Below, piece after piece: positions 1-23,403 of a stretch of DNA of 23,403 nt. The first letter of the stretch is position 1, and each line of letters starts with the position of its first letter. A program made the position numbers and the translations under genes. The DNA comes from a virus, in the IMG/VR virus record IMGVR_UViG_3300012344_000009, positions 1 through 23,403 of that record. One strand, 5' to 3'. A model generated the notes under the pieces. That model was not told where the DNA came from, did no database searches, and was given only the letters and a program-made list of their open reading frames with translations.

Positions 1-78
1 ATAGCGCTGGTAGATAAAGATAACAGCAATTTTATTTCTTATCTTTTGAATGACACGATAGAATACAACGGCGGTTTA
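1..78. repeat. Terminal overlap copy 1 (identical to 23326-23403), marking circular closure of the contig
   Basis: Bases 1-78 (ATAGCGCTGGTAGATAAAGATAAC...GGCGGTTTA) recur exactly at 23326-23403. One open reading frame runs through both copies. The unique length is therefore 23,325 bp. Confidence 0.9.
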
Positions 79-675
79 ATAGAAAAAACTCTTTGGAAGT
101 ATGACGAGAACATGACAGAGACAGAGAGCAACCCCACAAGTTTAGGCGATTTATTGAAGCAAACTTATGCGCGCGTGGACAAGCAGAATAAAACGATTGA
201 GTTAGTAGTTAGCAAAACGGAAGAGTTAGAGCAGAAAACTTCCTCTATCAAACTCTCTACCGACGAAATCAATATGGAAGTAAAGAAAAACCAACAAATT
301 ACAAACGGCAAAATTGAAGATGTGAATTCTACTCTCCAAGAGATAGAGAAAAAAGTAAATACGTCCATTACTGCCGATGATGTGAAAATTCTTATAGAGC
401 AAAACATAGGAACGACGGACAAAGTTAAAACCTCTACGGGTTTTACCTTTAATGAAGATGGATTAAACATAACGAAAAGCAATAGCGATTTTTCCACAAT
501 AATTGATGAGGATGGTATGACAATCAAGAACAAAAGTAAAGTGATGCTTGAAGTTAATAATATGGGCGTTGATGCTATTAACCTTACCGCTTCCCAATAT
601 TTAAGAGTAGGAAACACGCGATTTGAAGATTATAAAAATAAGAAGCGCACGGGCGCTTTTTGGGTAGGAGGTTAA
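1..675 (+). CDS. Tail-associated protein (Tal-like / prophage tail endopeptidase-type), 3' part of the gene starting at 22444
   Basis: Frame 1 is open from base 1 and continues the frame of 22444-23403 across the circular junction. It stops at TAA 673-675. The joined product is 518 aa. It sits directly after the tape measure and a small Dit-position gene and has a coiled-coil segment (KTEELEQKTSSIKL...). The family call is from visual similarity only. Confidence 0.7.
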   Translation: MALVDKDNSNFISYLLNDTIEYNGGLIEKTLWKYDENMTETESNPTSLGDLLKQTYARVDKQNKTIELVVSKTEELEQKTSSIKLSTDEINMEVKKNQQITNGKIEDVNSTLQEIEKKVNTSITADDVKILIEQNIGTTDKVKTSTGFTFNEDGLNITKSNSDFSTIIDEDGMTIKNKSKVMLEVNNMGVDAINLTASQYLRVGNTRFEDYKNKKRTGAFWVGG

Positions 676-681
676 TAATTA

Positions 682-2325
682 ATGGCTACAACTTTTAGCG
701 CCGGTTTAGTAGATGGCGGTAGATACCCGCTTAATACCGGCACGTTATATGCGTGTCGTTGTAATTATGGCGCGTCCTTAACGTATCAGCAAGTGATTAA
801 AGATGATGGTAAATACATTCGCGTAGTTGTTAGCGGAACTTATAGCGTTAGTTATAAATCCCTATCGGGTTATGTGATGAAAGCGCCCAACAATTATACA
901 TTTACTGTTTAGGACGTGAGTAGCAACCGCTACGATAGCGCGGAACACTCTATTGTTAACGGCTCATACACCTATGAATATAAATATGATACGTTATCAG
1001 CCCTAACTTTTAAATATCGTATCTATGCTTGGTGTCAATGCGTCCCGCAATACGCCGGTAAAGAAGCAAGCGATTATATAGAGTGCGTGCCTTCTACAAC
1101 AATAGGTGTTAGCGCCATTAGCGCAAGTAGCGCCGATATAGGCAAAGCAACCCGTATCACAATTACAAAAATGGATGATAGTTATACTGATAACCTCTAC
1201 TATACGGTTAACGGCACTAAAACGCTTATCGCGCAAAACGTATCAAGCCCGTATGATTGGGTTTTACCTACTTCTCTCTTCTCTCTCTTGGGCAGTAGCG
1301 CGCGCTCTATCTCTATAAGGTTATCAGTAGAGACGTTCAGCGGATCGGTAAGCCTTGGAACAGATGTAGTAGATATAAACGGATTGGCGGCGGAGGCTGA
1401 TTGTAAACCAACCTTAAATCCGCTATTAACCGTTCTCAATCCGCAAACTACGTTAACCGGTAATTCTACTACCGGTATCGTAGGTTTTAATAAAGTAAAC
1501 GTAAAACCGCAAGCAACAGCGCGTTATAACGCTACCATTACCTCTATCACCACGAAACATAATGGAAATTCCAAGAGTGGAGAAGAAGTAGAGTTTGATT
1601 TAGGTAATGATACTTTTACAATTACCGTTGTAGATAGCCGCGGTTTTAGCGCTTCAATCACTAAATCAGTTCCGCTTGTTAATTGGTTTAAGCCTACTCT
1701 TACTTTTAGCGCCGAAAATCCCGACGCAACAGATAACAGTTGTAAAATAAGCGCGTCTGGCTCATTCTTTAATTCCTCTTTTGGCGCAGTAGCCAATACG
1801 TTATCTATTTAGGTGCGCTGGAAAACCGGGAGCAATGAGTATAGCGAGTGGGTAAACGCTACTACAACACTAAATAGCAATTCATACACTTCAACGTATA
1901 CCGCCACGTTAGATTATACGAAGCAATGGACAATTCAAGTTAGGGCAGTAGATAAACTAACTACTATTTTAGGAAAAGAGATAATAGTAAATACACTACC
2001 CGTTTTCGATTGGAGCGCTACCGATTTTAATTTTAACGTGCCGGTTATGATACAAGCCTCTGCCCCCGGATTAATTGTAAAATCTCCAACAGGAGGATTA
2101 AGCGGGCTAAGAACTGAAAACGTAAACACGGGAAGTGCTATGTTTGTTGGAAATGAACACGATGGTAAAATACACGGTATATATTCCTACGCGCAAGGGG
2201 TATGGTTAATCCATAGCGACGGAACGAATTGCTATATATGCGGGAATAAAGTTCGTAAAATCACAACCGGCACGGCTACGCCTTCCGGTGGTAGTGATGG
2301 CGATATTTATTTTCAATATACGTGA
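682..2325 (+). CDS. Tail fibre / host-specificity protein (DUF859-like siphovirus protein), 547 aa with TAG read as sense
   Basis: ATG 682 follows GGAGG. ORF-track pieces 682-912, 916-1812 and 1813-2325 share frame 1 and are separated only by TAG (910-912, 1810-1812). It ends at TGA 2323-2325. The sequence is Ser/Thr/Asn-rich and beta-type, in the tail-fibre position. Confidence 0.6.
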
Positions 2326-2335
2326 GGTGGGCTAA

Positions 2336-2944
2336 ATGGGAACTTGGAGCGCAAGCGCGCCAACTAATCTTGCTACCTCTTGGACAAAAGTAGGCGAAAC
2401 AAGCGCTATTAACTGCTACTATTGTATTAGATATAGGCAAGATGGAGCGTGGCACAACAATTGGTTTTACTACGTTATGAAAGTTGTAGGCTATACAGCG
2501 CGCACGACAAGTAATTAGGCAGTTCAATGTATTGAATTATATGTTAACGATGGCAACACCGATATAGGCTTATCATTTTACCCCGTAGCAACTGATAGCA
2601 CAGGGGAAGTAGTGGGTGAGTATATTCTTAACTCACCGCACACTTCCTCTTTAACGAAAATTGCTACGCGCTATTATACCACTACGAATAATAAAACCCC
2701 TGATACATTAACTTTTGGTGTATATACTTCCGCATACACAAGCCGCGGCCCTTCCGTTGGTAGTGTAGGCGATAAAGTGCGTATCAATGCGCGCGTATCG
2801 GGCAGTAGCCCCGTCATTAAAGGCGCTACACCTTGGGTTAATATAAGTGGAACTTGGAAGTAGTGTATTGCTTGGGAAAATGTAGGAGGCACTTGGAAAA
2901 CAGTTTTACCGTATATAAATAGTGGAGGCACTTGGAGGTAGTAA
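2336..2944 (+). CDS. Tail fibre-associated protein with C-terminal GGTWK 13-aa repeats, 202 aa
   Basis: ATG 2336 follows GAGGTGG. Pieces 2336-2518 and 2612-2863 are in one frame, joined through TAG 2516, 2861 and 2939. The gene ends ...TGG AGG TAG TAA, with the true stop at TAA 2942-2944. The C-terminus reads ISGTWKQCIAWENVGGTWKTVLPYINSGGTWRQ. Confidence 0.7.
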
Positions 2945-2946
2945 AG

Positions 2947-3180
2947 ATGGATTTTCAACCGATATTAGAGGCAGTTTTTTAGCAAGGTATTTGGTGCGCG
3001 TTGTTCGTGTGGCTTTTTTATGATAGCCGAAAACGGAGCGAAGAACGCGAAGAAAAGTTATATACAATTATCACAGAACAAAAAAGTATTTTAACGCAAA
3101 TTTCCAACTCGCTTATCTTAATGGACGAACGAATTGGGAAATTAGAAAATACGCTTTTAGGAGGAAAAGGTAATGATTGA
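2947..3180 (+). CDS. BhlA/UviB-family holin-like protein, 77 aa
   Basis: Translation: MDFQPILEAVF(TAG)QGIWCALFVWLFYDSRKRSEEREEKLYTIITEQKSILTQISN... It has an N-terminal TM helix followed by a charged coiled coil, the pattern I recall for BhlA (QGPFAVLFCWLLFY..SKERESKLY). One TAG at 2980-2982. Stop at TGA 3178-3180. Confidence 0.75.
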
Positions 3181-3370
3181 TTGGAAAAGAGTTTTACGCA
3201 CATTAGTTCAATCCGCTGCGGGCGCGGGTATCGCCCTTATCACGGCGGTTTCGTAGGATTGGAGCAAACAGAGCCTTATTTCTGCGGGAATTACATTTGC
3301 TTCTACCGTTGTTATTGCCGTTCTTATGAACATCAAGGGACAGGTTGAGGACGATGAAACAACTAACTGA
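3173..3370 (+). CDS. Holin (two TM segments, phage holin 4-like), 65 aa
   Basis: ATG 3173 follows GGAGGAAAAGG and overlaps the stop of the previous gene. Translation: MIDWKRVLRTLVQSAAGAGIALITAVS(TAG)DWSKQSLISAGITFASTVVIAVLMNIKGQVEDDETTN. TAG at 3254-3256. Stop at TGA 3368-3370. Confidence 0.75.
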
Positions 3371-3980
3371 ATGGTTTAAGGCGCAAGTAGGTATCCAAGA
3401 GAAGGAAGAAAATAATGTTATCTATAATACTATCTACTATGGGCGCGAAGTGAGCGGAGATAATTTCCCGTGGTGTTGCGCGTTTATATGGGTAGGATTT
3501 AATGAGAACAATATGAGTAGCCTTTTTTGCGGAGGCACTAAAACCGCCTATTGCCCGTTCGTAGTTCATTGGGCGCGCACGCATAACCAATGGATAACGA
3601 GCGGATACCGCGAAGGGGATTTAATTCTTTTTGATTGGGATAGCGACGGCGTAGCGGATCACATTGGTTATTGTATTGGCGTAAACGGCAATACGGTTAT
3701 CGCGATTGAGGGAAACGCCGGTGATAAGGTTAGTTAGTGCTACCGCGTAGATAATATTATGGGCGCGTATCGTCCCGCATACCCAACCGAACAACCGCCT
3801 ATAACTCTTCCTGTCCTTGAAGATGAATACATCGTTAAGGCTGGTGATAGCCTATGGAGTATTGCCGAGAGGTATTTGGGAAGCGGGTTAAAGTGGCAAG
3901 AAATTTATAATTTTAACAACCTAAATAGCACAACAATTTTGATTGGATAGAAACTAAAATTACCGAAAAGAGAGGGGTAA
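3354..3980 (+). CDS. Endolysin: N-terminal CHAP-type peptidase plus C-terminal LysM, 208 aa
   Basis: The catalytic Cys context is FPWCCAFIW and the His context is DHIGY, followed by IAIEGN. The C-terminal LysM reads YIVKAGDSLWSIAERYLGSGLKWQEIYNFNNLNSTTILIG(TAG)KLKLP. TAGs at 3735-3737 and 3948-3950 join ORFs 3345-3737 and 3759-3950. Stop at TAA 3978-3980. The start could alternatively be TTG 3345. Confidence 0.85.
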
Positions 3981-3994: not shown

Positions 3995-4102
3995 CATTAA
4001 TAAAATCAGCGTGCCACATTGAAAATAATCAGGGGGACAGAATTTGAAAAGTGCTGATTTTTCAATGGTTTGTGGATTTTTTGAAAAGCCGTTTTAGAAA
4101 AC

Positions 4103-4152
4103 GCTGATTCGTAATCAGCAGGTCGTGTGTTCGAGTCACATTGCCAGCTCCA
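4103..4152 (+). other. 3' portion of a tRNA-Thr(CGU) gene (positions ~27-76 incl. CCA); putative attP core
   Basis: Layout: GCTGA-TTCGTAA-TCAGC (anticodon arm, anticodon CGT), AGGTC (variable), GTGTG-TTCGAGT-CACAT (T arm), TGCCAGC (acceptor 3' strand), T, CCA. No complementary 5' acceptor strand (GCTGGCA) or D arm lies upstream, so this is a fragment and not a gene. It lies 118 nt upstream of the integrase. Confidence 0.75.
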
Positions 4153-4153
4153 A

Positions 4154-4185
4154 ACCCTGTATCCGTTGAGGATACAGGGTTTTTT
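4154..4185 (+). terminator. Rho-independent terminator immediately after the tRNA fragment
   Basis: An 11-bp stem ACCCTGTATCC / GGATACAGGGT with loop GTTGA, followed by TTTTT. Confidence 0.8.
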
Positions 4186-4193: not shown

Positions 4194-4222
4194 TTGACAA
4201 ATTTGTCCCTCTGATTTATACT
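4194..4222 (+). promoter_or_regulatory. Sigma-A/sigma-70 type promoter for the integrase (class 'TTGACAAAT')
   Basis: TTGACA (4194-4199), a 17-nt spacer, then TATACT (4217-4222). It lies about 48 nt upstream of the int ATG, which has an AAGGAGGA RBS. Confidence 0.7.
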
Positions 4223-4269
4223 GCGAATTAAAAAGATAAGTGGGACACTTTTAAGGAGGATTTAGGGCT

Positions 4270-5277
4270 ATGCGTATCAAAATGGCGGCTGATGAAGATA
4301 GGGAATTGACAGATGTTTTAAAAGAATTTCTTACTCTTAAAGCAAGCAACAACTGCGCGCGGAAAACAATTCACAATTATGAGCAAAGTATTTTGAAACT
4401 TCAAAAGGATGAAGCCATAGAAAAAATTAGCGAACTCACCGACGAAACAATAATTGATTGGAAAAAAAGAATGTTGGATAGTTCTCTTTCCGCTTCTTCC
4501 ATTAATCATTATTTGCGAGATGTGCGCGCGTTCGTCAATTACTGTATCAGCAAGCACTACATTCCATTTTTCCAATTTGAACTTATCAAGCAACAGGAAG
4601 AAGGTATTAAGTTCCTACCAAACACCGACATAGAAAAACTTTTAGAGAAACCGCTTAAAACAGAAACCTTCCCTACTTGGCGCTCTTGGATGATTGTTAA
4701 TTGGGTTTACGCAACCGGCAACCGCGAAAGCACTATCTGTGAAGTAAGATTAAGTGATGTAGATTTTAGCGGAAGCCGTATTTATTTGCGCCACACCAAA
4801 AGCCGTAAACTACAAACTATACCCCTCTCGCGCACGCTTGCTTCCTATCTCAAAGAGTATATACGCTACTTCCGCAAAAACTGCCCGCCTACCGCCTATC
4901 TCTTCCCCTCTATTGGAGATACCAAACTAACTACTGACGGGCTACGGAGAGGCTACGCGCGCTATTGTAAAAGCAGAGGCGTTTCTAATACTTCCCTACA
5001 CGGAATACGGCACACCTTCGCGCAAGAGTGGATTAACAACAACGGCAACCTCTACCAATTACAGATTATGTTAGGACACTCTACCCCAACTATGACGCAA
5101 AAGTATTTGCGTGCGGTAGGAACTCGCTTTGATAGTTTTGAGGATTTTAACCCGCTTGATAAAGCGCGCACCGCCAGCAGGACGAAAGAAGTAGTATTAA
5201 GTGTAAGGGAGAGTATAACCAACGATAAAAACGATAATCCGCAAATCGTAGTAATTCCCCCCGAAAACGGAGAATAA
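4270..5277 (+). CDS. int: Tyrosine recombinase / phage integrase, 335 aa, no TAG
   Basis: It has an N-terminal SAM-like domain and a catalytic region with ATGNRESTICEVRLSDV, HGIRHTFAQEW and LGHSTPTMTQKYL (R...HxxR...Y pattern). The ORF is intact under the standard code. Stop at TAA 5275-5277. Confidence 0.95.
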   Translation: MRIKMAADEDRELTDVLKEFLTLKASNNCARKTIHNYEQSILKLQKDEAIEKISELTDETIIDWKKRMLDSSLSASSINHYLRDVRAFVNYCISKHYIPFFQFELIKQQEEGIKFLPNTDIEKLLEKPLKTETFPTWRSWMIVNWVYATGNRESTICEVRLSDVDFSGSRIYLRHTKSRKLQTIPLSRTLASYLKEYIRYFRKNCPPTAYLFPSIGDTKLTTDGLRRGYARYCKSRGVSNTSLHGIRHTFAQEWINNNGNLYQLQIMLGHSTPTMTQKYLRAVGTRFDSFEDFNPLDKARTASRTKEVVLSVRESITNDKNDNPQIVVIPPENGE

Positions 5278-5296
5278 ACGATTTACCCCACCAAAA

Positions 5297-5340
5297 GGAA
5301 GAGAGAAGAGTAAAAAAAAATTTGCTTTTCTCTCTTTTTT
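5297..5340 (+). terminator. Probable terminator after int
   Basis: A long imperfect hairpin: AAGAGAGA (5299-5306) pairs with TCTCTCTT (5329-5336), with further A:T/G:T pairs inside. It ends in a T-run. Confidence 0.5.
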
Positions 5341-5399
5341 GTATTTATGGTATTGCTTTTTGCGCTTGCTTGTGTTATACTATTATATTTTATATCCCA

Positions 5400-5428
5400 T
5401 TGACAAATGCGCTTTAATGTGCTATAAT
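5400..5428 (+). promoter_or_regulatory. Consensus sigma-A promoter with extended -10 (class 'TTGACAAAT')
   Basis: TTGACA (5400-5405), a 17-nt spacer, then TGcTATAAT (-10 at 5423-5428). An AT-rich upstream tract precedes it. It drives 5514-6560. Confidence 0.8.
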
Positions 5429-5513
5429 GTTAACGTAATGAGGAAGGGGAAACCTCCTCCATTCAACAAAATATGTTTAAAAATATGATTACATAAAAGG
5501 AGTAAAAAACATT

Positions 5514-5810
5514 ATGAAGAATCTTAAAGTGAAGTTTGGCGCTAACCCGTTTGGTGATACGAAGGAGGAACTGCTGAAAAATGCGGAGCGTCGTTTGGCT
5601 ACTAATTATGATGATAACGGTAGCGGTTTTAAAGTTTATCAATACATTATGGAACACGGGGACGGCTGCGTTCTGGAATACGAAGAAAATCCCTATGAGC
5701 AGAACCCCGAAGATGCTGAAATGTATTTTGGTTTAATTGCCCTTGAACATATGGGCTATATCAAGCACAAAGAAGCAAATATTATTGAGTTTCGCCCGTG
5801 CGGACGCTAA
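5514..5810 (+). CDS. Hypothetical protein, 98 aa, TAG-free
   Basis: ATG follows AAAGGAG. It is intact under the standard code. The C-terminus LIALEHMGYIKHKEANIIEFRP looks like a winged-helix wing. I recognise no family. Confidence 0.7.
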   Translation: MKNLKVKFGANPFGDTKEELLKNAERRLATNYDDNGSGFKVYQYIMEHGDGCVLEYEENPYEQNPEDAEMYFGLIALEHMGYIKHKEANIIEFRPCGR

Positions 5811-5833
5811 TTTAAAGAAAGGGATTTTAATTT

Positions 5834-6190
5834 ATGTCTAAAAAGATAATGAATAAGAAATTTGATGTATTTTATTGCGATGACAAGCGCGATAGAAGTA
5901 TTTACTGTCAAGCGTGGGAAAACCTTTATCGTAAAGGTTGGGAAGGGAACGCTGCCGTTATCTACGATGACATTTTTAAGAAAAATAAAGATAAACTTTT
6001 CCGCCCTCCGTTTAGATTTGCCTATGCTAATTATCGCTCAACTATGAGTGATGAAGAAATTACCCACGCTATCGAAGTGCTTATTAAGTGCGGTTATTTT
6101 AAGAAGTTTGACAATAAAACAGTTTATTTTTATCCCAAAGGAAACGAAGAACTTATTAATGCTTTTCTTAACGAAGAAGAAAGCGCCTAA
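5834..6190 (+). CDS. Hypothetical protein, 118 aa, TAG-free
   Basis: It is intact under the standard code. The C-terminal part reads IEVLIKCGYFKKFDNKTVYFYPKG, the same helix-G-[YF]-hairpin pattern as its neighbours. Confidence 0.7.
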   Translation: MSKKIMNKKFDVFYCDDKRDRSIYCQAWENLYRKGWEGNAAVIYDDIFKKNKDKLFRPPFRFAYANYRSTMSDEEITHAIEVLIKCGYFKKFDNKTVYFYPKGNEELINAFLNEEESA

Positions 6191-6209
6191 TTATAGAAAG
6201 GTATCAAAT

Positions 6210-6560
6210 ATGGAAAATTACGAAAAGATTTTTATTAAAGAAAACATTCACCCCGGTATGAGCGCAAAGGCACATAGAGAACTTTATGGCAGAAAGTGCT
6301 TCCTGCTTGATTTAGAGGACGAATATATATGGGATGAATACCAGAACGCAGGTAAAATCTATCAAGCAATTATTGATATGCTTCCCAATGATACGATGCT
6401 CACCCGTGAAAAAGTTAATGAAGAACTTGAAGGGCGAGAGTGGGGAACTCTTGACGAAGATGATTATGAGGTAGGGATTAATCAACTCATTGATTGGGGT
6501 TTCCTTATTGAAGAGGAAGAAACGGTTAATGATATTCCTGTAATGTGGTTTAATTGGTAA
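6210..6560 (+). CDS. Hypothetical acidic protein, 116 aa, TAG-free
   Basis: The internal ATG 6210 (MENYEKIF...) of track ORF 6048-6560 is taken as the start, because the upstream part overlaps 5834-6190 in another frame. The C-terminus reads INQLIDWGFLIEEEETVNDIPVMWFNW. Stop at TAA 6558-6560. Confidence 0.65.
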   Translation: MENYEKIFIKENIHPGMSAKAHRELYGRKCFLLDLEDEYIWDEYQNAGKIYQAIIDMLPNDTMLTREKVNEELEGREWGTLDEDDYEVGINQLIDWGFLIEEEETVNDIPVMWFNW

Positions 6561-6565
6561 TGGCG

Positions 6566-6691
6566 GACGCTGACGCGCCCGCGCCAATAGTAGGAATAAT
6601 TAAAGGGTATAATGCCCGAGACAGGTAGAAGCGCAAACGCGCTTCTTTTTTTATGCGATCCGGCGCGCCCTCTTTTCTTCCCTACTCTTGG
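6566..6691 (+). repeat. Foldback repeat element A (purine arm 6584-6607, pyrimidine arm 6668-6691) enclosing the operon terminator
   Basis: CCAATAGTAGGAATAATTAAAGGG is an imperfect reverse complement of CCCTCTTTTCTTCCCTACTCTTGG. The leader GACGCTGACGCGCCCGCGCC matches GAGCGCTAACGCGCCCCCGCC of element B at 8156. Confidence 0.6.
6627..6652 (+). terminator. Rho-independent terminator of the 5514-6560 operon
   Basis: An 8-bp stem AGAAGCGC / GCGCTTCT with loop AAAC, followed by TTTTTT. Confidence 0.85.
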
Positions 6692-6800
6692 ACAATTCCC
6701 ATTAATCGGCGTAAGCCTTTTTTCATATATCTATGGACAAAAGTGATTAAATAAATATTCACTAATTTTAGTATAATACGAGAGGAATATTCAATACCTC

Positions 6801-6829
6801 TTGACATTTATTCATTTTTGTGATATAAT
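6801..6829 (+). promoter_or_regulatory. Consensus sigma-A promoter with extended -10 (class 'TTGACATTTA...TGTGATATAATATA'), presumptive early promoter
   Basis: TTGACA (6801-6806), a 17-nt spacer, then TGaTATAAT (-10 at 6824-6829). It is near-identical to the promoter at 9242-9270. The palindrome GAATATTC (6785-6792) lies just upstream. Confidence 0.8.
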
Positions 6830-6835
6830 ATACAT

Positions 6836-6965
6836 AGGTGAGTAATCATAAGGGCAAAACTGATTAATATATCTGCCCTGATTTTTAATTGTATATGAAA
6901 GCATAATGTTTTTCTCCTTTTTCCTTTTAGAGGGGTTTGAGTAGTAGCGAACCCCTCTTCTTTTT
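6836..6965 (+). ncRNA. Candidate ~130-nt leader RNA / sRNA between the early promoter and an intrinsic terminator
   Basis: The predicted start is ~6836. Hairpin AGGGCA (6851-6856) / TGCCCT (6874-6879) is followed by GATTTTT. A terminator with 9-bp stem AGAGGGGTT (6929-6937) / AACCCCTCT (6950-6958) is followed by TCTTTTT. There is no plausible + strand ORF. The next gene starts at 7014. Confidence 0.3.
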
Positions 6966-7013
6966 AGGGAAGCAAGAGAGACATTGTATAACGAATGAAG
7001 GAGAATAAAATAA

Positions 7014-7151
7014 ATGTTAGTTAAAACGGAAACCATAACCATTAAAGTAAGTGAAGCCGAGAAGAAGGCTATTCAACAGATGGCGCAAGAGCAAGATATT
7101 AGCGTTAGTAAACTCTTGTATCGCTTTATAAAAAAGAACGGATTAATTTAA
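7014..7151 (+). CDS. Ribbon-helix-helix (CopG/Arc-like) DNA-binding protein, 45 aa, TAG-free
   Basis: ATG follows GAAGGAGAA. Translation: MLVKTETITIKVSEAEKKAIQQMAQEQDISVSKLLYRFIKKNGLI, a beta strand followed by two helices. It is below the 60-aa cutoff of the ORF track. Confidence 0.55.
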   Translation: MLVKTETITIKVSEAEKKAIQQMAQEQDISVSKLLYRFIKKNGLI

Positions 7152-7166
7152 AGGAGAAACAAAACA

Positions 7167-7349
7167 ATGGAACAAAGAACGTATCTTTATACTATTTTCA
7201 GCCGGGATTTAGCATTTAAGTTAGCATAGAAAGGTTTTAAATGCTACGGAACGGGAACAAACAGCCGATATAACGACAAAGAGGTATATTTCTTTAAAAA
7301 TACACCAGAACTTCACTATGAAATATACCAATACAAAAATAATAAATAA
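7167..7349 (+). CDS. Small DUF5659-like protein, 60 aa
   Basis: ATG follows AAGGAGAA. Translation: MEQRTYLYTIFSRDLAFKLA(TAG)KGFKCYGTGTNSRYNDKEVYFFKNTPELHYEIYQYKNNK. TAG at 7227-7229. Stop at TAA 7347-7349. Confidence 0.55.
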
Positions 7350-7373
7350 ATTTTAGAAAGGAATTATAACAAA

Positions 7374-8090: not shown

Positions 8091-8113
8091 AGGGGTGTCA
8101 TTATTACACCCCT
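8091..8113 (+). terminator. Hairpin directly after rep (possible terminator, no U-tract)
   Basis: An 8-bp stem AGGGGTGT / ACACCCCT with a 7-nt loop, starting 1 nt after the TAA. Confidence 0.3.
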
Positions 8114-8156
8114 CTAATAAGTAGGCAACAAAATGGTGAGTAGAAACAAGAGGGGA

Positions 8157-8285
8157 GCGCTAACGCGCCCCCGCCAAGAGTAGGAAGAAAGGAATGGTAA
8201 GCGCGGAGCGCGCCCTCCCTCTTTTCTCTTCCTCTTGGCGCGGAGCGCGGAGCGCGACGCTATATATTAGGAGGAATTAATAATG
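8157..8285 (+). repeat. Repeat element B: foldback (8174-8192 vs 8217-8238), GC heptad triplet and shared 5' cassette up to the ATG of 8283
   Basis: Interval 8217-8285 matches 14621-14690, with a 43-nt identical core CCCTCTTTTCTCTTCCTCTTGGCGCGGAGCGCGGAGCGCGACG followed by TATAT..AGGAGGA..TAATG. CCAAGAGTAGGAAGAAAGG is the inverted partner of the pyrimidine tract. The tandem heptads GCGCGGA GCGCGGA GCGCGAC lie at 8238-8258. Confidence 0.8.
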
Positions 8286-15239: not shown

Positions 15240-15243
15240 TGTA

Positions 15244-16257
15244 ATGGCACACATTGTTTATGATAATTTTGTTTTAGAGAATAAGGTTGAAGAGATGGTT
15301 AAAACCCAGATTGATATGAATAACTATCTCACGCCGGATTATTCTCTTAGTGAAAGCGCCGGTATGGTTAAGAAAGTTAACGTTTACGATGCTACGGGCG
15401 CTGTTGAAGAGTTGGCTATGGGTGAGGGTAATAGCGACGCTAACGACATTGAGGTTGGTTTCACCCAGCGCGAATACCGCGTTAAAACCACACAGGGACG
15501 TTTCCCCTATTATGATGAGCAGGAAATGACAGATCCAATGGTGGTTGAAGTTGGTTTACAGAAAATTTCCGCCCTTATGGTTAATGATTTAACTGATAAG
15601 GCTATTGCCGAGATGGGCAAGGCGAAGATTTAGAAAGCCGTTTCTGCTTGGAACTTTGATACCTTCGCCGACGCTATCGCCCTTTATCCTTATGAGGACG
15701 AAGAGGGGCTGTTCTGCCTTATCAACCCGGCTCAAAAGGCTGCGATCCGCAAGGCTCTTAATGATAACCTTAAATACGTCGAGGGTTTCGCGCGCACCGG
15801 CTATATTGGCACGGTTTGTAATGTTCCTATCATTGTTAGCAAGGCTGTTCCCGAAGGTGAGGCTTATCTTGGCACTTCCAAGGCTATCACTTGCTTTGTG
15901 AAGAAGGGCGTTGAAATGGAGCAAACCCGCGACGCTGACAAGCGCAAGAACACCATTACCGCCCGTAAAGTTATGCTTGTCGCTCTCACCGATGCTACCC
16001 GTATGATTAAGATGGGTGCTGCGCAGGCTACCGCCGCTACCGTTGCTTCCGCTTCCGGTAAGGCTATTAGTGGCGCTGCTTCCACGGGTGCTGTTGTTGA
16101 GGTTTATGTGAATAAGGAACTTGTTGGTAGCGCTACGGCCGCTAACAATGCTTATACTTTTACCGCCTCCGAAGCGCTTGTTGCTGGTGATGTTGTTTCT
16201 ATCATTGCGCGCCTCTCTGGACACATTGATAGCACCGCGTCAAAGGTTGTGGAGTAA
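15244..16257 (+). CDS. Major capsid protein (HK97-fold, N4 gp56-type family) with C-terminal Ig-like domain, 337 aa
   Basis: Translation starts MAHIVYDNFVLENKVEEMVKTQIDMNNYLTPDYSL...GAVEELAMGEGN... Frame-1 pieces 15244-15633 and 15634-16257 are joined by TAG 15631. Codon usage is distinct, rich in GCT/GTT/GGT, consistent with a highly expressed gene. The long minus-strand ORF 15589-16224 is its shadow. Confidence 0.85.
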
Positions 16258-16544
16258 TGTTAGAAGAAATTAAAGCGCTGTTAGGCATTACCGATAATTC
16301 AAAAGATAATATCTTATCCGCTTTAATTTCTATGGCTACCGAAGAAGCAACAGAATATACCAATAGAGAAGAGAAAGATTTAGGCGCGGTTATCCGCAAA
16401 ATGGTTATCTATCAATATAACCGCGTTGATAGTTTGGGGCTGAATAGTGAGGGTTATAGCGGAGTAAGTTTCAATTACTCTACCGATTATCCCGGCGATA
16501 TTAAGCGCGCCCTTCAATCAATGAAAAGAGTAATTTCTTTATGA
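16257..16544 (+). CDS. Head-tail connector protein (gp6-like), 95 aa, TAG-free
   Basis: The start is a TAATG overlap with the capsid stop. Translation starts MLEEIKALLGITDNSKDNILSALISMATEEATEYTNR..., the typical connector N-terminus. Confidence 0.7.
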   Translation: MLEEIKALLGITDNSKDNILSALISMATEEATEYTNREEKDLGAVIRKMVIYQYNRVDSLGLNSEGYSGVSFNYSTDYPGDIKRALQSMKRVISL

Positions 16545-16819
16545 AGTTTTACGAATACATTGAAAACGGCGTAGATGAATATGGACAAGCTACTCTCCAA
16601 AAGGGAGAAGAATTTGAAATGGACATTTACCCGCAAACGCGCAATGAAGTTGATGATGTGCGGTTTTGCGAAAGCACCGATATAGGGTTAACGCGCTACC
16701 GCACTTCCGCCCCCATACTTTCCTCTTCTCTTGGTGGCGGAGCGAACGAAGCCCGTTTCGCTGTTCTCTATGTTATCCCCTCTAAAAGAATGAATACCTA
16801 TATCTTGAAGAAGTTATGA
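16541..16819 (+). CDS. Head closure / head-tail adaptor-position protein, 92 aa, TAG-free
   Basis: It has ATGA overlaps on both sides. It contains a degenerate copy of the pyrimidine-CTCTTGG-GCGGAGCG repeat at 16693-16752, encoding TSAPILSSSLGGGANEA. Confidence 0.5.
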   Translation: MKFYEYIENGVDEYGQATLQKGEEFEMDIYPQTRNEVDDVRFCESTDIGLTRYRTSAPILSSSLGGGANEARFAVLYVIPSKRMNTYILKKL

Positions 16820-17214
16820 AAGTAGAAGTTATAGGCGTTGGAAAGTTGGCAAAGAAATTAAAGCCAGCGGATTTAAAAGAAGCACTTAATGAAAGTTGCC
16901 TTTTAGTGGAGAATACGGCAAAAGAAAATTGTCCTGTTGATAGCGGTTAGTTAAGAAATAGCATTACTTCCAATGTTAGCGGTGATAAGGGCGAAGTAGG
17001 AACTAATGTTGAATACGCGCCCTATGTAGAATACGGCACGGGCGTTTATAATTCCGGCAGAACAACACCGTGGAGTTATAAAGATGCCTCTGGTGAATGG
17101 CATACTACAACAGGGCAAAAACCGTAGCCGTTTTTAGTTCCCGCATTGGACAGTAATAGAGATGAGATACTTAATATTTTCAAAGAGAAAGTAAAAGAGG
17201 GATTGAGTAAATGA
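16816..17214 (+). CDS. HK97 gp10-family head-tail joining protein, 132 aa
   Basis: Motifs: CPVDSG(TAG)LRNSITSNVSGDKGEVGTNVEYAPYVEYGTG...KP(TAG)PFLVPALD. TAGs at 16948 and 17125. Stop at TGA 17212-17214. Confidence 0.85.
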
Positions 17215-17546
17215 TTAGTTTAAAAAAAGAGGTAGTGAAAGAATTAAATAAAATCCTACCTGCTCACTATGAATTATTAATTTCTTCCCCGTCAATCCCT
17301 TGTATTACCTATATGGAAAGCGACAACGCCGATACATAGGTAGGAGATAGCATAGGGTATAGTAGAATTATCTACACCATTAAATTATGGGGAAGCAATT
17401 TAAAGCAACTTGAACCGTATGAGTTAGAAATAGGTAATTGTATGCGCAAGTTAGGTTATAAACGTATCAGTTATAACGAACTTTGGTATGATGATAAAAT
17501 TTCTATGATTATGCGGTTTGAAGGGTTGGCTTTTGAAAATTATTGA
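17211..17546 (+). CDS. Tail completion / tail terminator-position protein, 111 aa
   Basis: The start is an ATGA overlap. One TAG at 17337. Stop at TGA 17544-17546. The call rests on its position between the gp10-like gene and the major tail gene. Confidence 0.5.
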
Positions 17547-17563
17547 TACAAGGAGTTTTTACG

Positions 17564-17968
17564 ATGGCTGGTTATATTTCCAAGGGTATTAAGTTATCCT
17601 ATAAAGTTGATAGTGAATTTGTTGATTTAACGAATCTTCAAGAAATCCCCGATTTGGGTGGCACGGCTGAAAGTATTGAAATTACTACTCTTGCCGATGA
17701 TGCCCATATGTATATGAACGGCATTAAATCTTATGGTGATAGCCTTGATTTTAAGTTTCTTTATGAGCCTACGCAGTTTAATACACTCGCTGCGCTTGCT
17801 GGCGAACAAGATTGGAAGGTTTCTCTTCCTGATGGCGTGAATGGCGCTATTGATACCACTTGCTCTTTTAAAGGAACTGCGTCCGTTAAGATTGATAGCG
17901 TTGGTGTAAACACCGCTATGACATACACTCTGTCAGTTAAGCCTACGTCGGCTATGACGTTTGCTTAA
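17564..17968 (+). CDS. Major tail protein (phi13/TP901-1-like), 134 aa, TAG-free
   Basis: ATG follows AAGGAG. Translation: MAGYISKGIKLSYKVDSEFVDLTNLQEIPDLGGTAESIEITTLADDAHMYMNGIKSYGDSLDFKFLY... The track start at 17543 is less likely. Confidence 0.85.
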   Translation: MAGYISKGIKLSYKVDSEFVDLTNLQEIPDLGGTAESIEITTLADDAHMYMNGIKSYGDSLDFKFLYEPTQFNTLAALAGEQDWKVSLPDGVNGAIDTTCSFKGTASVKIDSVGVNTAMTYTLSVKPTSAMTFA

Positions 17969-17969
17969 T

Positions 17970-18016
17970 CCATAACGTTATGGGGTTGGGGAAGGTTTTC
18001 CTTTCCCTTCCCCAAC
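17970..18016 (+). terminator. Two consecutive hairpins after the major tail gene (attenuator / partial terminator)
   Basis: A perfect 14-nt palindrome CCATAACGTTATGG (17970-17983) is followed by an 11-bp stem GTTGGGGAAGG (17985-17995) / CCTTCCCCAAC (18006-18016). The trailing T-run is only TT. Confidence 0.45.
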
Positions 18017-18044
18017 TTGATAAATTGAAAGGAAGAATATTTTT

Positions 18045-18362
18045 ATGAATTACGTTGATTTTTGTGCTGGTGGAAAAGAATACAAGTTGCGTTTAACCAC
18101 CCGTTCTATTATTCAGTTAGAAAAGAATATCGGTTGTAATCCTTTGGCGATTTTCGGGGACGGAAATAAAATGCCCCAGATTACTACGCTTGTGGCTGTT
18201 CTCCACGCCTCTTTATAGGCGCTGGAACACGGTATTACCGTAAATGATAGTTATGATATTTTTGATGCTTATTTGGCTGATGGACATAGTTTAACTGATT
18301 TTATCGCCGTGCTTGTTGAATTGTATAAAGTATCGGGTATCATTCCAGAGGAAAAAAACTGA
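18045..18362 (+). CDS. Tail assembly chaperone (gpG-like), 105 aa
   Basis: Translation: MNYVDFCAGGKEYKLRLTTRSIIQLEKNIG... One TAG at 18216. It ends GAG GAA AAA AAC TGA (stop at 18360-18362). Confidence 0.8.
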
Positions 18363-18763
18363 TAGAAGAGGGCTATGATACCAACTCATAGCCCTCTTTT
18401 CTTTTTAGCGAAAATATAAAAAGTTGGTTAAACAATGCCCTTGATATAGGCATTGAAGAAAGTATTTTTTGGGGAATGACGTTAGCGGAATTACAACGAA
18501 AATTTGAAAGTTATAAGAGAACAAAAGAAATCCAATAGAAGGAGAAAGCAACATTCGATTATATTTTGGCGGATTTGATAGGTATGAGTATTGGGCGCTT
18601 GTATAACCGTAGCAATAAATACCCCAAAATTGAGGAAGTATACCCTTCCCTCTTCCCCCCGGACGAAGAAGTAGAACAAAAGAAAAAAGATGCTTTAAAT
18701 ATAGAAAGATTTAAACAGTTCGCTAATTCATTTAATAAGAAATTGGAGGGAGCGAATAAATGA
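18045..18763 (+). CDS. Tail assembly chaperone -1 frameshift fusion (gpGT-like), ~239 aa
   Basis: The slippery heptamer A AAA AAC (18353-18359) shifts frame 0 to frame 2. The -1 frame is open to TGA 18761-18763 through TAG 18389 and 18536, and includes track ORF 18566-18763. Confidence 0.75.
18353..18398 (+). promoter_or_regulatory. Programmed -1 ribosomal frameshift signal (slippery site plus stimulatory hairpin)
   Basis: AAAAAAC (18353-18359), a 6-nt spacer, then a perfect 13-bp hairpin AAGAGGGCTATGA (18366-18378) / TCATAGCCCTCTT (18386-18398) with a 7-nt loop. Confidence 0.8.
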
Positions 18764-21700
18764 CAGAAGAATTAAAAGTAATTATAGACGCTGCTACCGA
18801 TGGCTTTAAAAAGGGAATGAAAGAGGCGGAAAGCACCCTTCAATCATTCGGTAAAAACGCTACAAAGTTTGCGGGCGATTTTGCTAAAACTTCCGTAAAG
18901 GCAACCGCTGCCGTAGCAACTGCTTCCGCTACAATGGTAGGCACTATTTCAAAAGGCGCGTTAGATGCCTACGCTGATTACGAATAGTTAGTTGGTGGCG
19001 TTGATACCCTCTTTAAAGAAAGTAGCAAAGAGTTATAGGCATACGCTGCCGATGCCTATAAAAATCAGCAGATGAGCGCTAATCAATATATGGAGATGGC
19101 AACCGCATTTAGCGCAAGCCTTATCCAGAGTTTAGGCGGAGATACCGCCCAAGCCGCTAAATATGCTGATATGGCAATTACTGATATGGCAGATAACGCG
19201 AACAAAATGGGAACTTCAATCACAGATATTGAAAACGCCTATAAAGGTTTTGCGAAATAGAATTATACAATGCTTGATAACCTAAAATTAGGCTACGGCG
19301 GCACAAAAAGCGAAATGGAGCGCTTGCTTGCCGACGCAGAAAAACTGACAGGCATTAAATATGATATTAATAACTTAAATGATATTTTCGACGCTATCCA
19401 CGTTATACAGACGGAGTTAGGTATAACCGGCACTTCCGCCGAGGAAGCAATGAAAACAATACAAGGCTCTACCGCAATGGCAAAGGCTGCGTGGCAAAAT
19501 CTTTTAACTGCGTTCGCGGATGAAAACGCCGATATAGGGAAAGCGGTTAGCAATTTAAGCGAAAGCGTTATAGCCGTAGTTAATAACGTAGGTAAACGAG
19601 TAGCGCAGATATTACCCACGATAGCCCAAGGATTAGGGCAGTTTATGGGTGAAGTAATGGGAACGTTAAGCGGTTGGGCGTAGCAATTAGCCCCGCTTTT
19701 TATTGATGCTATATCAAATTTAGCCTCTGTAATTTCTTCTACACTTCCGCAACTCGCCTCCGCTATAACAAGCATAGTGCCGATGATGATTGAAAGTTTC
19801 GTTTCCATTATGGGGACATTAGGCGAGGCGCTAAACGGAGTTATTGAGGCGATAGTAGCAGATATACCCGCTATTTTATCTTCCCTTGCTTCTGGTTTAA
19901 CAGATGGGTTTTCTATTATAACTAATGCGTTAATGAGCCTTCTTTCCGGTATCGCCGAGGCTATCCCTATGGTGTTTACTACATTGGGACAGAAAATACC
20001 GCCGATGTTAACGCAAATAGCGCAAACAATTAGTAGCGGTGTCGGCGCATTGCTTGAAGCGGGCATTACATTGTTTAGCGGGTTAGTTTAGGCGCTTCCA
20101 ATGGTAGTAAAGAGTTTATCAACCGCTATTCCTGCTTTTATTACCTCTATTGGAAATACGCTTATTAGTGGCGTTGATACCATTTTTAACGCGGCCACTA
20201 CGTTGTTTGGCAGTATTGTTGATGTGCTTCCGGTTATTATCTCAAACCTATCTAATATGATGCTTCAATTAATCAGCACAGCAAGCAGGATTTTGAGCGA
20301 GGGAATAGACGTTATTATTGAGGGTGCTACTACTTTGCTTAACGGTATTGTTGAAGCGTTGCCAATAGTGGTAGAAGCCATTACAACGGCACTTCCCGAA
20401 TTGATAACCGCTATTTGTGATTTTCTCACAAGTTCAGTAGGCTTAATTATTAATGCTACAATGACGCTTTTTAATGGCATTGTTTAGGCGCTTCCTACGA
20501 TTATTGAAATGCTTGTAGCAATGCTACCCACCTTGATAACCTCTATTTGTGATGTGTTCTCTACGTCCGTTGGCTTAATGGTTGATGCCGCCATTACTTT
20601 ATTTAACGGAATAATTGAAGCAATCCCGTAGATTGTTAGCGCTATTGTTGGCGCGCTTCCTACGCTAATTGAAGGTATTATTAACGGCTTACTCTCTTGT
20701 ATTGGCTCGCTGGTTATGGGCTTCATAGAACTCTTTAATGCCTTTATGACGGCTTTACCCACAATTATTAATATTATCGTTGGGCAATTACCGCTTATTA
20801 TTAACAACGTTGTTCAAGCGTTAGTAAGCGGAATTGGTATGCTTGTTCAAGGTTTCATTCAATTATTTATGGCGTTCGTTCAAGCCTTGCCTTCAATTAT
20901 TAGCGTGATAGTAGGCAATTTACCCGTTATTATTGTAGGTATTATTTCAGCGTTGTTAACTAATATTCCCGCCCTTGTGGTTGGTTTTGTTCAATTATTT
21001 ATGGCGTTTATTACAGCAATCCCGCAAATTGTTAGCGCTATTGCTGGTAGTATTCCAGAAATTATTAAGGCTATTGTTCAAGGCTTGTTAGATGGTATTG
21101 GACAATTATTAGAAGCAGCCGGTAAATTAGGACAAGCCATTTGGGACGGAATTAAAGGTATTTTTGGTTTTGGTAATCCCGGCAAAGAGATAGCCGACGA
21201 AACCGCCCAAGGTATTACCGATGGCGAAGGTAAAGTGTATAACGCGGGGCAAAACGCAGGAACAGCGTATAATGATGGTTTAGCCTCTCAAAGTGGCAAA
21301 ACCTACGATACAAGTTTTGAAACCGGCGCTACCACAGTTCAAGGTATAGAAGATGGGCTTACGCCCCTTGAAAGCACAACAAATGATGCGTGTGCCACTT
21401 ATAACGCCTGTTGGCAATAGGCTTCTTACGACACAACCGCCACGCTTGGCACAATGAAAGATAATATTAATGGGGAATTAAGTTCTATGTCTACTGATGT
21501 TAGCACCTATGCTAACGACATAAGCACCAATGCCGTAGAAGGCTTTAATACGGCTGCGAACGACATAGAAGAGCCGTTAAATCAAATGAGTAGCACAGTT
21601 GAAGAAGCATTTAGCAAGATGGAAGAAACAGTAAACAAAACCGTTGATAAGGTAGTAAATGCCGTTGAAATTATGGTTAGCAAATTATTAGATACCGTAA

Positions 21701-22065
21701 ATTTCAAGTGGGAATTACCGTATTTAAAAATCCCGCACTTATCGGTATCAGGGCGTTTTAACACTAATCCCCCGTCCGTTCCCGTCTACAATATTGCTTG
21801 GTATGCGCACGGTGGCGTTTTTGATACACCTACCCTATTCAGCCATAACGGAAGCATTGGTGGTTTAGGCGAGAATGGCGCAGAGGCAATAGTTCCGCTT
21901 GAAAATAATACAGAATGGTTAGATAGAATTGCCGAGCGTTTAGGCGCTGGTAGTTCGCGCCCCATTGTTTTACAGGTGGACGGAAAAACTTTTGCGGAAA
22001 CAAGCGTTGATAGTATTAACGCACTTACCCGGCAAACGGGCAAATTAGGTTTAGTATTAGCATAA
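18760..22065 (+). CDS. Tail tape measure protein, 1101 aa, 8 in-frame TAGs
   Basis: Seven frame-1 ORF-track entries (18760, 19072, 19270, 19777, 20101, 20716, 21454) plus two short untracked stretches are separated only by TAG (18985, 19036, 19258, 19681, 20089, 20485, 20629, 21418). It has the TP901-type tape measure core (MERLLADAEKLTGIKYDINNLNDIFDAIHVIQTELGITGTSAEEA), hydrophobic repeats and a conserved C-terminal end (AWYAHGGVFDTPTLF...GENGAEAIVPLE). Stop at TAA 22063-22065. Confidence 0.9.
19939..21126 (+). repeat. Nine tandem 132-nt (44-aa) repeats inside the tape measure gene
   Basis: The repeat anchor L-[FL]-x-[GSA]-[IFL]-[VIAM]-x-[AV]-[LI]-P starts at 19939, 20071, 20203, 20335, 20467, 20599, 20731, 20863 and 20995, an exact 132-nt period. 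Confidence 0.85.
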
Positions 22066-22076
22066 GGAGGATAATA

Positions 22077-22430
22077 ATGGCTTACTTCAAAATTAACGAT
22101 ACAGATTATAGTATGTATACGAGCGCGCTTAAAATCACGAACGCCTCTAATTATACATCACAAACAAACGCACATTACGATACCGTAGTTGATTACATTA
22201 ACGACAAGAAAACCGTAGAAGTAGAAATTATCCCTCTGAATGATACCGTTATGTAGCAACTTACGGCAGATATTAGCGGGTTGGGTATGAGTATCTCATA
22301 CCTTAACCCGCAAACAAAAGAACTTAAAACTATCAGTTGTATCTTGCCCTCTACAAACATTGAATACTACACAATTCGACAAAACAATATAAGTTTCAAA
22401 AAACTTAAATTGAAATTCACGGAACTTTAA
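22077..22430 (+). CDS. Small tail component in the distal-tail (Dit) position, 117 aa
   Basis: ATG follows AAGGAGGA. Translation starts MAYFKINDTDYSMYTSALKITNAS... One TAG at 22254-22256. Stop at TAA 22428-22430. Confidence 0.5.
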
Positions 22431-22443
22431 GGGGGTATCATAA

Positions 22444-23403
22444 ATGAGTATTTCCCCGATCCGGACACTCACGGCTACGGCAGAGTTTTATTTAAATAAT
22501 TCAAAAGTAGCCGAATACGCAAACACAGACAAAATTATTTCATTCGATATTTAGCGCGTCGGTGAAGATAGCAAGTTTTTCGGTTTTGGTATCTGCCAGC
22601 GCCTTAACTTAAAGCTGATAGATAAAGAGCGGGCGCTTGCCTACACAACCGCCCACTCTATCAAAATAACAATTACCGACAATTCCGCGAACACCTTTAC
22701 TTTTCCCTACTTTTGGATTAGTGAAATCCATAGAGACGAAAAAACAAACCAATTAAGCATTACCGCCTATGATTTAATTTACCCCGCCAGCGCGCACACC
22801 TACGACGAACTCACAATAGAAAAGCCTTATACTATTACGGAACTTCTTTCCGCTATTGGAACGTTGCTTAAAGTTGAAGTGAACGAAGTAGGAGAAGCGT
22901 TTAATATTTCTTATGCGGAAGGCGCGAACTATGAGGGAACAGAAACGATTAGAGAAGTATTAGATGACATAGCGGAAGCAACAACCACAATTTATTTTTT
23001 GGACAAAGATAATAAACTCACGTTCAAAGAGTTAGACAGAGACGGAGAGCCTATTTTAACGATAGATAAGAGTTTATATTTTGAATTAACTACTTCCTCT
23101 AATAAGCGCCTTCAAACGATTTGTAGCGTCACAGAGTTGGGCGATAATGCCAGCGCCTCTACTACTTCTATCGGCTCTACGCAATATGTAAGAGATAACC
23201 CCTTTTTAGAGTTGCGCGATGATATAACCACTATTTTAGATAGCGCCATTGAACGAGTAGGCAATTTAACGATTAGCGTATTTAATTGTAAATGGCGCGG
23301 AATGCCAATAGAGGTAGGAAGTAAGATAGCGCTGGTAGATAAAGATAACAGCAATTTTATTTCTTATCTTTTGAATGACACGATAGAATACAACGGCGGT
23401 TTA
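22444..23403 (+). CDS. Tail-associated protein (Tal-like), 5' part; continues at base 1 across the circular junction
   Basis: ATG 22444 follows GGGGGT. TAG at 22552-22554. Frame 1 then stays open to the window end and continues at 1-675 (518 aa in total). It is absent from the ORF track because it has no stop inside the window. Confidence 0.7.
23326..23403. repeat. Terminal overlap copy 2 (identical to 1-78)
   Basis: An exact 78-nt match to the window start. Confidence 0.9.

Follow-up and report, generated by a model that had tools for sequence, protein, structure and literature searches.

Gut phages that read the amber codon TAG as glutamine (Gln) are known from two lines of work. Metaproteomics has proved this reading for gut phages (Peters et al., PMC9523058), and Borges et al. 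(bioRxiv 10.1101/2021.08.26.457843; Nature Microbiology 2022) described the TAG-recoded Topaz clade, with genomes of 22±3 kb. In the Topaz account (10.1101/2021.08.26.457843), a curated prophage of 23,706 bp lies in a standard-code Oscillospiraceae genome, its ends marked by an integrase and a host threonine transfer RNA (tRNA-Thr). Topaz integrases avoid TAG, circular free forms occur, the clade mixes standard-code and recoded members, and recoding is proposed to be a lysogeny switch. Here we analyzed IMG/VR virus record IMGVR_UViG_3300012344_000009, a stretch of 23,403 nucleotides (nt) that we call the window. We describe its in-frame TAG codons and a 5-nt insert in terL, the gene for the large terminase subunit.

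We conclude that the window is very probably the complete, circular genome of a small temperate phage of the siphovirus type, likely with a gut Clostridia bacterium as its host, in which UAG is read as Gln (NCBI code 15) and the lytic genes would be amber-locked. The recoding itself is correct but not new. The original prediction, made from the sequence of this DNA, took amber-to-Gln recoding to be known from gut phages, in agreement with both studies cited above. It also held that a compact, 23-kb, integrase-bearing example is notable; such phages have already been described as the Topaz clade, and public gene calls for close relatives use TAG = Q. More unusual is the conserved 5-nt interruption of terL, and the missing decoder of UAG is also of note.

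TAG as a sense codon and the missing decoder

The window closes into a circle of 23,325 bp through an exact 78-bp overlap of its ends, and the protein of a tail gene reads on across the junction (Table 1). All credible genes are on the plus strand, in a single co-directional array of approximately 33 phage genes that stop only at TAA or TGA. Coding density with curated starts is 91.5% and the G+C content is 39.7%.

We found that TAG is a sense codon throughout the genome. In-frame codons were counted in two gene sets, one with curated starts (7,110 codons) and one made of the longest open reading frames (ORFs). There were 50 in-frame TAGs in the first set and 53 in the second. The curated codons include no TAA and no TGA, compared with the 50 TAGs, and all three triplets are frequent in the two off frames (119-366 each). 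The genes terminate in TAA (17) or TGA (16) and never in TAG. Pfam domains extend across TAGs in several proteins (Terminase_3, Terminase_3C, SPP1_portal, Mu F, Terminase_2, and CHAP with LysM).

Reading TAG as sense also restored long genes. Coverage of the plus strand by ORFs of at least 60 amino acids (aa) was 63% with code 11 and 93% with TAG as sense, compared with 69% and 77% when TGA or TAA, respectively, was made a sense codon. The longest ORFs were 340, 299, and 283 aa with standard stops and 1101, 548, and 455 aa with TAG as sense. In contrast, ORF lengths were almost unaltered when TGA was made sense instead. Standard-code annotation fragments contigs of this kind, and code-15 gene calling is needed for them. 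The public Joint Genome Institute (JGI) endolysin protein of the window's contig, for example, is 127 aa long, cut at the first in-frame TAG.

These measurements bear out most of what the original prediction had said about TAG. Its hand count of about 51 in-frame TAGs lies between our two recounts, and its counts per gene (tape measure, 8; terL, 9; the ORF at 8283, 4; portal, 3; endolysin, 2) are the same as ours. The codons that it quoted (TAG at 20485, 20629, 3948, and 2939; CAA at 20881 and 21025, each 396 nt on from its TAG) are all correct and in frame. The genes end in TAA or TGA as it had stated, one of them with TAG-TAA at 2939-2944, and the comparison of coverage under the two codes that it had proposed gave the rise from 63% to 93%.

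The TAG codons are shared with related phages. The family is abundant in public gut assemblies: TerL proteins with 77-91% identity occur on hundreds of contigs of 20-23 kb in ENA and Logan. One sample name points to Hadza and Nepali cohorts. Assemblies made independently (ENA, Logan, and IMG/VR) keep TAGs at the orthologous positions. For 35 of the 50 TAGs in the window, an independent assembly of a relative likewise has TAG, and for 27 some relative has CAA or CAG. Two sister phages, L010 (IMGVR_UViG_3300045988_062240) and L011 (IMGVR_UViG_3300012979_000773), have TerL proteins 68-71% identical to those of the recoded group and have intact ORFs in the standard code; terL of L010 terminates in TAG. 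The family thus spans a code transition and, with standard-code and recoded members at approximately 70% TerL identity, offers a compact system in which the origin of recoding can be studied.

The TAGs are distributed unevenly between the integrase module and the rest of the genome. Of the Gln-type codons (CAA, CAG, and TAG), 20% (50/249) are TAG. None of the 17 in the integrase gene and the three small early ORFs is TAG, compared with 50 of 232 elsewhere (Fisher p = 0.028). Over the other 29 genes, TAG is spread more evenly than by a random draw over Gln positions: exactly one TAG is found in 17 genes (9.2 expected, P = 0.002) and none in only 4 (8.3 expected, P = 0.02). Most genes of the head and tail morphogenesis block (11900-18763) have exactly one. 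The even spread fits one amber lock per gene.

According to the model of Borges et al., a standard-code host would be able to translate only the integrase and the early module, whether the phage has just entered or is present as a prophage. Each lytic gene would be held back by one or more amber codons for as long as UAG cannot be read. In addition to the series of consensus promoters and terminators, the decision between lysis and lysogeny would thus have a second, post-transcriptional lock in the genetic code.

We looked for the decoder in the genome itself. No credible tRNA(CUA) was found in the window using ARAGORN (default, -ps, -ps80, intron, and mt modes), Rfam (E<=1), or a scan for CUA anticodon arms, and there was none in the examined portions of more than 10 relatives. 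The genome is also without a release factor or synthetase. The only Rfam match, to the terminator part of a Bacteroides small RNA model, scored 28 bits against a gathering score of 175 and was dismissed. Because no decoder is encoded, it is most likely supplied from outside the genome. Candidates would be the host, a co-resident recoded phage, or a near-cognate host tRNA-Gln(CUG) when release factor 1 (RF1) is limiting. A suppressor tRNA was detected in approximately 40% of the TAG-recoded genomes surveyed by Borges et al. (bioRxiv 10.1101/2021.08.26.457843). A complete genome without a decoder sharpens the question of how UAG is read in the approximately 60% of amber-recoded phages that lack a detectable suppressor tRNA.

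The lack of a tRNA(CUA) weighs against our reading of the genome, as do several other results. The significance of the TAG deficit in the early block is modest, coming as it does from one genome, with four genes and 17 Gln codons. TAGs are found in the replication genes as well, which makes the split one between the lysogeny module and the rest rather than between early and late genes. A scan of reference bacterial genomes returned no prophage of the window's family, only a 37%-identical Sporosarcina prophage. Finally, the recoding and the residue are known here from sequence alone.

UAG might still be mainly a stop codon that is read through inefficiently, with the TAGs serving as attenuators that hold lytic proteins at low levels. 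Two points would fit: Gln is the residue inserted when UAG is naturally read through by near-cognate tRNAs, and a dedicated decoder was not found. However, yield would be the readthrough efficiency raised to the power of the number of TAGs, and there are nine TAGs in terL and eight in the tape measure gene. Because yield falls with each TAG, these essential proteins need efficient decoding. The 20% share of TAG among Gln-type codons and the presence of TAGs at invariant Gln positions of catalytic domains also argue against attenuation, and we consider it very unlikely.

We give slightly less credence to the notion that the phage simply matches its host. If the host itself read UAG as Gln, there would be no code conflict and no lock, and no suppressor tRNA would be needed. 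This would agree with the lack of tRNA(CUA) and release factor in the complete genome and the relatives, and the scan of reference genomes did not identify a host for the window phage. On the other hand, the integrase and early block avoid TAG, as do the integrases of the Topaz clade (p = 1.2e-16 in the account of Borges et al.), and the published Topaz prophages lie in a standard-code Oscillospiraceae genome. The sister phages L010 and L011 are standard-code phages, and TAG is the terL stop codon in L010. To our knowledge, there is no bacterial lineage in which UAG is Gln. We favor the reading in which a standard-code host is met by an amber-locked phage.

The amino acid at TAG

The results support the conclusion that TAG encodes Gln in this genome. 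A first table of TerL homologues, with Gln at most TAG columns, was set aside as circular: the contigs encoding the closest public proteins themselves abound in in-frame TAGs, which the gene caller had already translated as Q. We replaced this table with codon-level alignments from which the relatives' TAGs were excluded, with diverse TerL proteins, and with verified standard-code homologues.

Codons opposite the window's TAGs in ten related loci were TAG (83), CAA (46), CAG (28), GAA (12), AAA (11), AAG (9), and GAG (9). CAA, the most frequent sense codon here, differs from TAG by two substitutions; the signal thus comes from the protein and is not mutational. With TAG cells removed, six non-redundant loci had Gln in 53 of 117 cells, followed by Glu (14) and Lys (12). 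We also scored the aligned residues with the 20 amino acids in turn, using the substitution profile that each has in the same alignments. The log-likelihood was -250.9 for Gln and -393.6 for the runner-up, Glu, a gap of 143 nats.

The diverse TerL set consisted of 128 representatives, 30-60% identical, that were obtained by searching 1.8 billion cluster representatives. Gln was present in 97 of 123 at the column of TAG 9458 and in 81 of 128 at that of TAG 9794. Over all TAG columns pooled, Gln made up 25% of residues, compared with a background of 3.2%. The verified standard-code set contained TerL from the cultured Clostridium phages BG3P and CS29, the Sporosarcina prophage, and the sister phages L010 and L011, whose code-11 ORFs are intact. 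Gln was found in 4/5 of these at 9458, 5/5 at 9794, and 4/5 at 10364 (18/45 cells overall).

The endolysin gave a similar result. TAG 3948 falls on the conserved Gln of the G-Q-x-L motif in the LysM domain. Of 111 homologues, 80 had Gln at this position, as did 10 of the 14 from contigs of at least 47 kb; the codon is CAA in L008.

Gln was the residue named by the original prediction, which had relied on the LysM motif and on paralogous repeats in the tape measure gene and had suggested tabulating the residues opposite each TAG. The LysM argument and the tabulation both favor Gln, as described above. The tape measure argument was only partly sustained. The pairing of TAG with CAA at a distance of 396 nt and the 132-nt period are real, but the argument is weaker than stated in that other repeat units vary: the column of TAG 20485 has D, E, T, or Q and that of TAG 20629 has M, V, I, T, S, or Q. 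The gene contains approximately 10 diverged repeats of 44 aa (132 nt) within 19600-21200, with an autocorrelation of 0.465 at 132 nt. Tandem Repeats Finder reported no repeats in this gene, the units being too diverged. Several tape measure TAGs are CAA in L005, L006, and L008.

Another residue at TAG (Glu, Lys, Tyr, Trp, or pyrrolysine) is highly improbable. Some TAG columns are variable or have a different residue in relatives, for example Leu at 9653 and Glu at 10394. Nevertheless, the likelihood puts Gln far above every other residue, both within the family and across diverse TerL, CAA is the commonest aligned sense codon in spite of its distance from TAG, and the conserved-Gln columns and the LysM motif agree.

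A 5-nt insert in terL

The original prediction was that terL is restored by reading through TAG. This is true of the nine TAGs, but the first 37 codons (9315-9425) are in another frame. Translation would start at the ATG at 9315, which has a strong ribosome-binding site and lies downstream of the promoter at 9242, and would proceed to ...YYGGR, the last codon of which (AGA, 9423-9425) is followed by TAA. The remainder of the protein, ASGKTKFIM..., is in a different frame beginning at 9431. The intervening TAAGC is inside the Walker A motif and is an insert relative to nine intact relatives.

We found the identical insert, within the invariant sequence AGATAAGCGC, in two other genomes, L008 (IMG/VR, ERZ779851; approximately 10064-10100) and L012 (ERZ28613949; approximately 5712-5750). 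L012 was examined up to 11.5 kb of a 48-kb contig that may be a concatemer. The terL genes of these carriers are 80-84% identical to that of the window, and synonymous sites flanking the insert differ. Around the insert, the window is nearer to L001 and L013, which do not have it (83-85% identity), than to the other carriers (71%). Between the window and L008 there are 11 synonymous and 5 non-synonymous differences in terL segment 1, and 142 and 32, respectively, in segment 2, a pattern indicating that both flanks of the insert are under purifying selection. Because the insert is shared by divergent genomes and its flanks diverge mainly at synonymous sites, it appears to be neither an error nor the mark of a dead gene. 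In a scan of metagenomes for the insert pattern there were 26 matches, one of them in terL of this family, on the 22,689-bp contig of L008; a scan of the viral set returned only this same contig.

A separate observation concerns the neighborhood of the insert in L012. This genome has an additional, free-standing HNH/NUMOD4 gene (5069-5629) between terS and terL, directly before the insert site; like the one among the head genes of the window, it resembles homing endonuclease genes.

The insert is a candidate for programmed translational bypassing of 5 nt. All 107 TerL homologues with a recognizable P-loop (107/107) have exactly three residues between GG and GK[ST]. A simple -1 or +2 frameshift is a less likely explanation than bypassing; it would add two residues or one residue, respectively, to the invariant P-loop. 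In contrast, a 5-nt bypass from the take-off codon AGA to the near-matching landing codon AGC would restore GGRASGKT exactly. The two codons are identical at two of three positions, and in each of the three carriers the next codon after AGA is TAA. A hairpin enclosing the gap is predicted in 3/3 carriers, a sample of only three in which the arms consist of G+C-rich Gly, Ala, and Ser codons.

The view that the window is a decaying prophage or an assembly artefact, its in-frame stops and terL frameshift being damage or errors, has the frameshift in its favor but deserves almost no credence, given that 50 of 50 interruptions are TAG and none TAA or TGA, that orthologous TAGs are conserved in independent ENA, Logan, and IMG/VR assemblies, that the genome closes into a circle, that divergence is mostly synonymous in both segments of terL, and that the same 5 nt are inserted in three genomes with terL only 80-84% identical.

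We also considered whether one cell state, limiting release factor activity and notably that of RF1, could power both recoding devices, letting the family switch code without a tRNA of its own. RF1 reads both UAG and UAA. Host tRNA-Gln(CUG) would read UAG through a G·U pair at the first position, and in terL a UAA that is slow to terminate after AGA would trigger the 5-nt bypass and in that way bring back the P-loop GGRASGKT. Commitment of the prophage to lytic growth would thus follow from one signal, sensed both by the amber codons and by the terL gap. We regard this proposal as unlikely.

Genome layout and comparison with known systems

The positions of the features are collected in Table 1. 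From the left end of the window, tail genes are followed by the holin-like pair, endolysin, attP, integrase, and three small ORFs. Next are genes for a ribbon-helix-helix protein, a DUF5659 protein, the DnaD-like initiator, the 142-aa ORF, TerS, TerL, portal, and MuF, and then scaffold, capsid, connectors, tube, chaperones, tape measure, and further tail genes that extend over the junction. The label "nuclease" that had been given to the 142-aa ORF was not upheld, as its only match is to a PHROG family of unknown function; two of its TAGs (8376 and 8604) are kept as TAG in L001 and L008.

Table 1. Features of the window, with TAG codons given by the position of their first nucleotide
Feature	Coordinates	Strand	Evidence or remark
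Terminal overlap and tail gene across the junction	1-78 = 23326-23403; gene 22444 to 675	+	Exact match; continuous protein
Tail protein, 547 aa; TAGs 910, 1810	682-2325	+	phrog_372, E = 4e-35; L008 has CAA and TAG at the two sites
202-aa ORF; TAGs 2516, 2861, 2939; ends TAG-TAA	2336-2944	+	
Two small holin-like ORFs; TAGs 2980, 3254	2947-3180, 3173-3370	+	phrog_2429, phrog_4316; both TAGs are CAA in L008
Endolysin, CHAP and LysM; TAGs 3735, 3948	3345-3980	+	Pfam
3' portion of tRNA-Thr(CGU), putative attP core	4087-4151; terminator hairpin 4152-4182	+	Sequence reading; ARAGORN mt mode
Tyrosine integrase, 335 aa, 11 Gln codons; TAG 0	4270-5277	+	Pfam Phage_integrase, E = 5.8e-29
Three small early ORFs (5514-5810, 5834-6190, 6210-6560); TAG 0	5514-6560	+	
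12/12 promoter (6801-6829), conserved leader of ~100 nt, intrinsic terminator (6929-6958)	6801-6958	+	Precedes replication and late genes
DnaD-like replication initiation protein; TAG 7413	7374-8090	+	phrog_186, phrog_678, phrog_19658
142-aa ORF; TAGs 8331, 8376, 8382, 8604	8283-8711	+	phrog_13596 (function not known) only; no Pfam match
Small terminase subunit (TerS); TAG 8913	8853-9245	+	Pfam Terminase_2, E = 1.7e-14
terL segment 1, 37 codons, ATG to ...YYGGR; last codon AGA 9423-9425	9315-9425	+	
terL 5-nt frame-breaking insert, TAAGC	9426-9430	+	Comparison with relatives
terL segment 2, ASGKT... to TGA; TAGs 9458, 9653, 9794, 9959, 9980, 10301, 10364, 10394, 10430	9431-10567	+	Pfam Terminase_3, Terminase_3C
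SPP1-type portal; TAGs 10602, 10782, 11457	10557-11903	+	Pfam SPP1_portal, E = 9.8e-102
Head and tail morphogenesis block	11900-18763	+	MuF, DUF4355 scaffold, major capsid (15244-16257), connectors, tail tube, chaperones
HNH/NUMOD4 gene among head genes	14327-14617	+	
Tape measure, 1101 aa; TAGs 18985, 19036, 19258, 19681, 20089, 20485, 20629, 21418	18760-22065	+	

The presumed attachment site lies between the endolysin and integrase genes. It consists of the 3' 55-65 nt of a tRNA-Thr(CGU), comprising the anticodon arm, T arm, 3' strand of the acceptor, and CCA, and is followed by a terminator. At the same map position, L008 and L012 have a full tRNA-Thr(CGU), on the minus strand in both (4509-4584 and 91-166, respectively). 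Phages that integrate into the 3' end of tRNA genes usually carry such a signature, the 3' part of a tRNA beside the integrase gene. For this phage, the predicted target would be a tRNA-Thr(CGU) gene of the host, likewise at its 3' end.

Clues to the host came from two genes. The nearest TerL proteins of cultured or GenBank phages are those of Clostridium phages (39-40% identity), and the endolysin combines CHAP and LysM domains. A nucleotide search of GenBank phages with the window gave a single 86-nt match only.

The genome is a chain of co-directional transcription units. Consensus promoters of the sigma-70 type match at 12/12 positions at 5400 (5400-5428), 6801, and 9242 (9242-9270) and at 11/12 positions at 4194, and there are terminators at 4152, 5295, 6627 (6627-6646), and 6929. 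No divergently transcribed repressor of the CI type was evident in 4194-9270, where all genes are co-directional. The early ORFs at 5514-6560 had no Pfam or PHROG match and are not conserved in most of the recoded relatives. These three TAG-free ORFs are the only candidates for immunity functions.

The leader that follows the 6801 promoter is conserved in L001, L008, L012, L013, and L042. It contains a hairpin with the invariant loop AAACUGAUUAAUAUA, a CU-rich tract resembling an anti-Shine-Dalgarno sequence, and the intrinsic terminator. In L042 the stem has a compensatory change, GGGCA/TGCCC to GGGCG/CGCC. The region 6801-6958 had no match in Rfam. It may act by attenuation or antitermination, or it may encode a small RNA.

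Like the Topaz clade as described by Borges et al., the window combines a small genome (23.3 kb), TAG read as Gln, and structural and lysis genes that form one recoded block. It also has a TAG-free integrase, an attP with a 3' fragment of tRNA-Thr, a circular form, and close relatives that use the standard code. Topaz has a Firmicute host; for the window, the Clostridium-phage-like TerL and the CHAP and LysM endolysin are indirect clues in the same direction. The match is close, as a comparison of features with a clade that is itself defined by a TerL tree (at least 95% bootstrap). The terL insert and the spread of one TAG per gene are not known to be part of that description of Topaz.

The crAss-like and Lak phages that use code 15 (PMC9523058) are like the window in reading TAG as Gln, mainly in late genes, and in having standard-code hosts. 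As described, they are approximately 100-600 kb, virulent, and have Bacteroidota hosts, and they often encode a suppressor tRNA(CUA) and sometimes release factor 2. In contrast, the window is the 23-kb genome of a temperate phage that likely infects Clostridia, and no translation component is encoded in it.

The nearest precedent for the terL gap is the terminase gene of the Streptomyces phage phiHau3, which has two 10-nt inserts led by UUA (Antonov et al., PMC10732093). Bypassing of these inserts has partial experimental support, and a link to the choice between lytic and lysogenic growth has been proposed (Antonov et al., PMC10732093). Unlike the inserts in phiHau3 and in T4 gene 60, that of the window is 5 nt long, is led by a true stop codon (UAA) rather than a rare sense codon, lies inside the Walker A P-loop, has take-off and landing codons that match at two of three positions, and is known to us from sequence comparison only. 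All of these cases share a short frame-breaking insert in an essential gene with flanks colinear with intact homologues, a slow or unreadable codon right after the take-off codon, and a junction motif that does not tolerate extra residues. If confirmed, the terL gap would be a natural example, and a rare one, of programmed bypassing over very few nucleotides.

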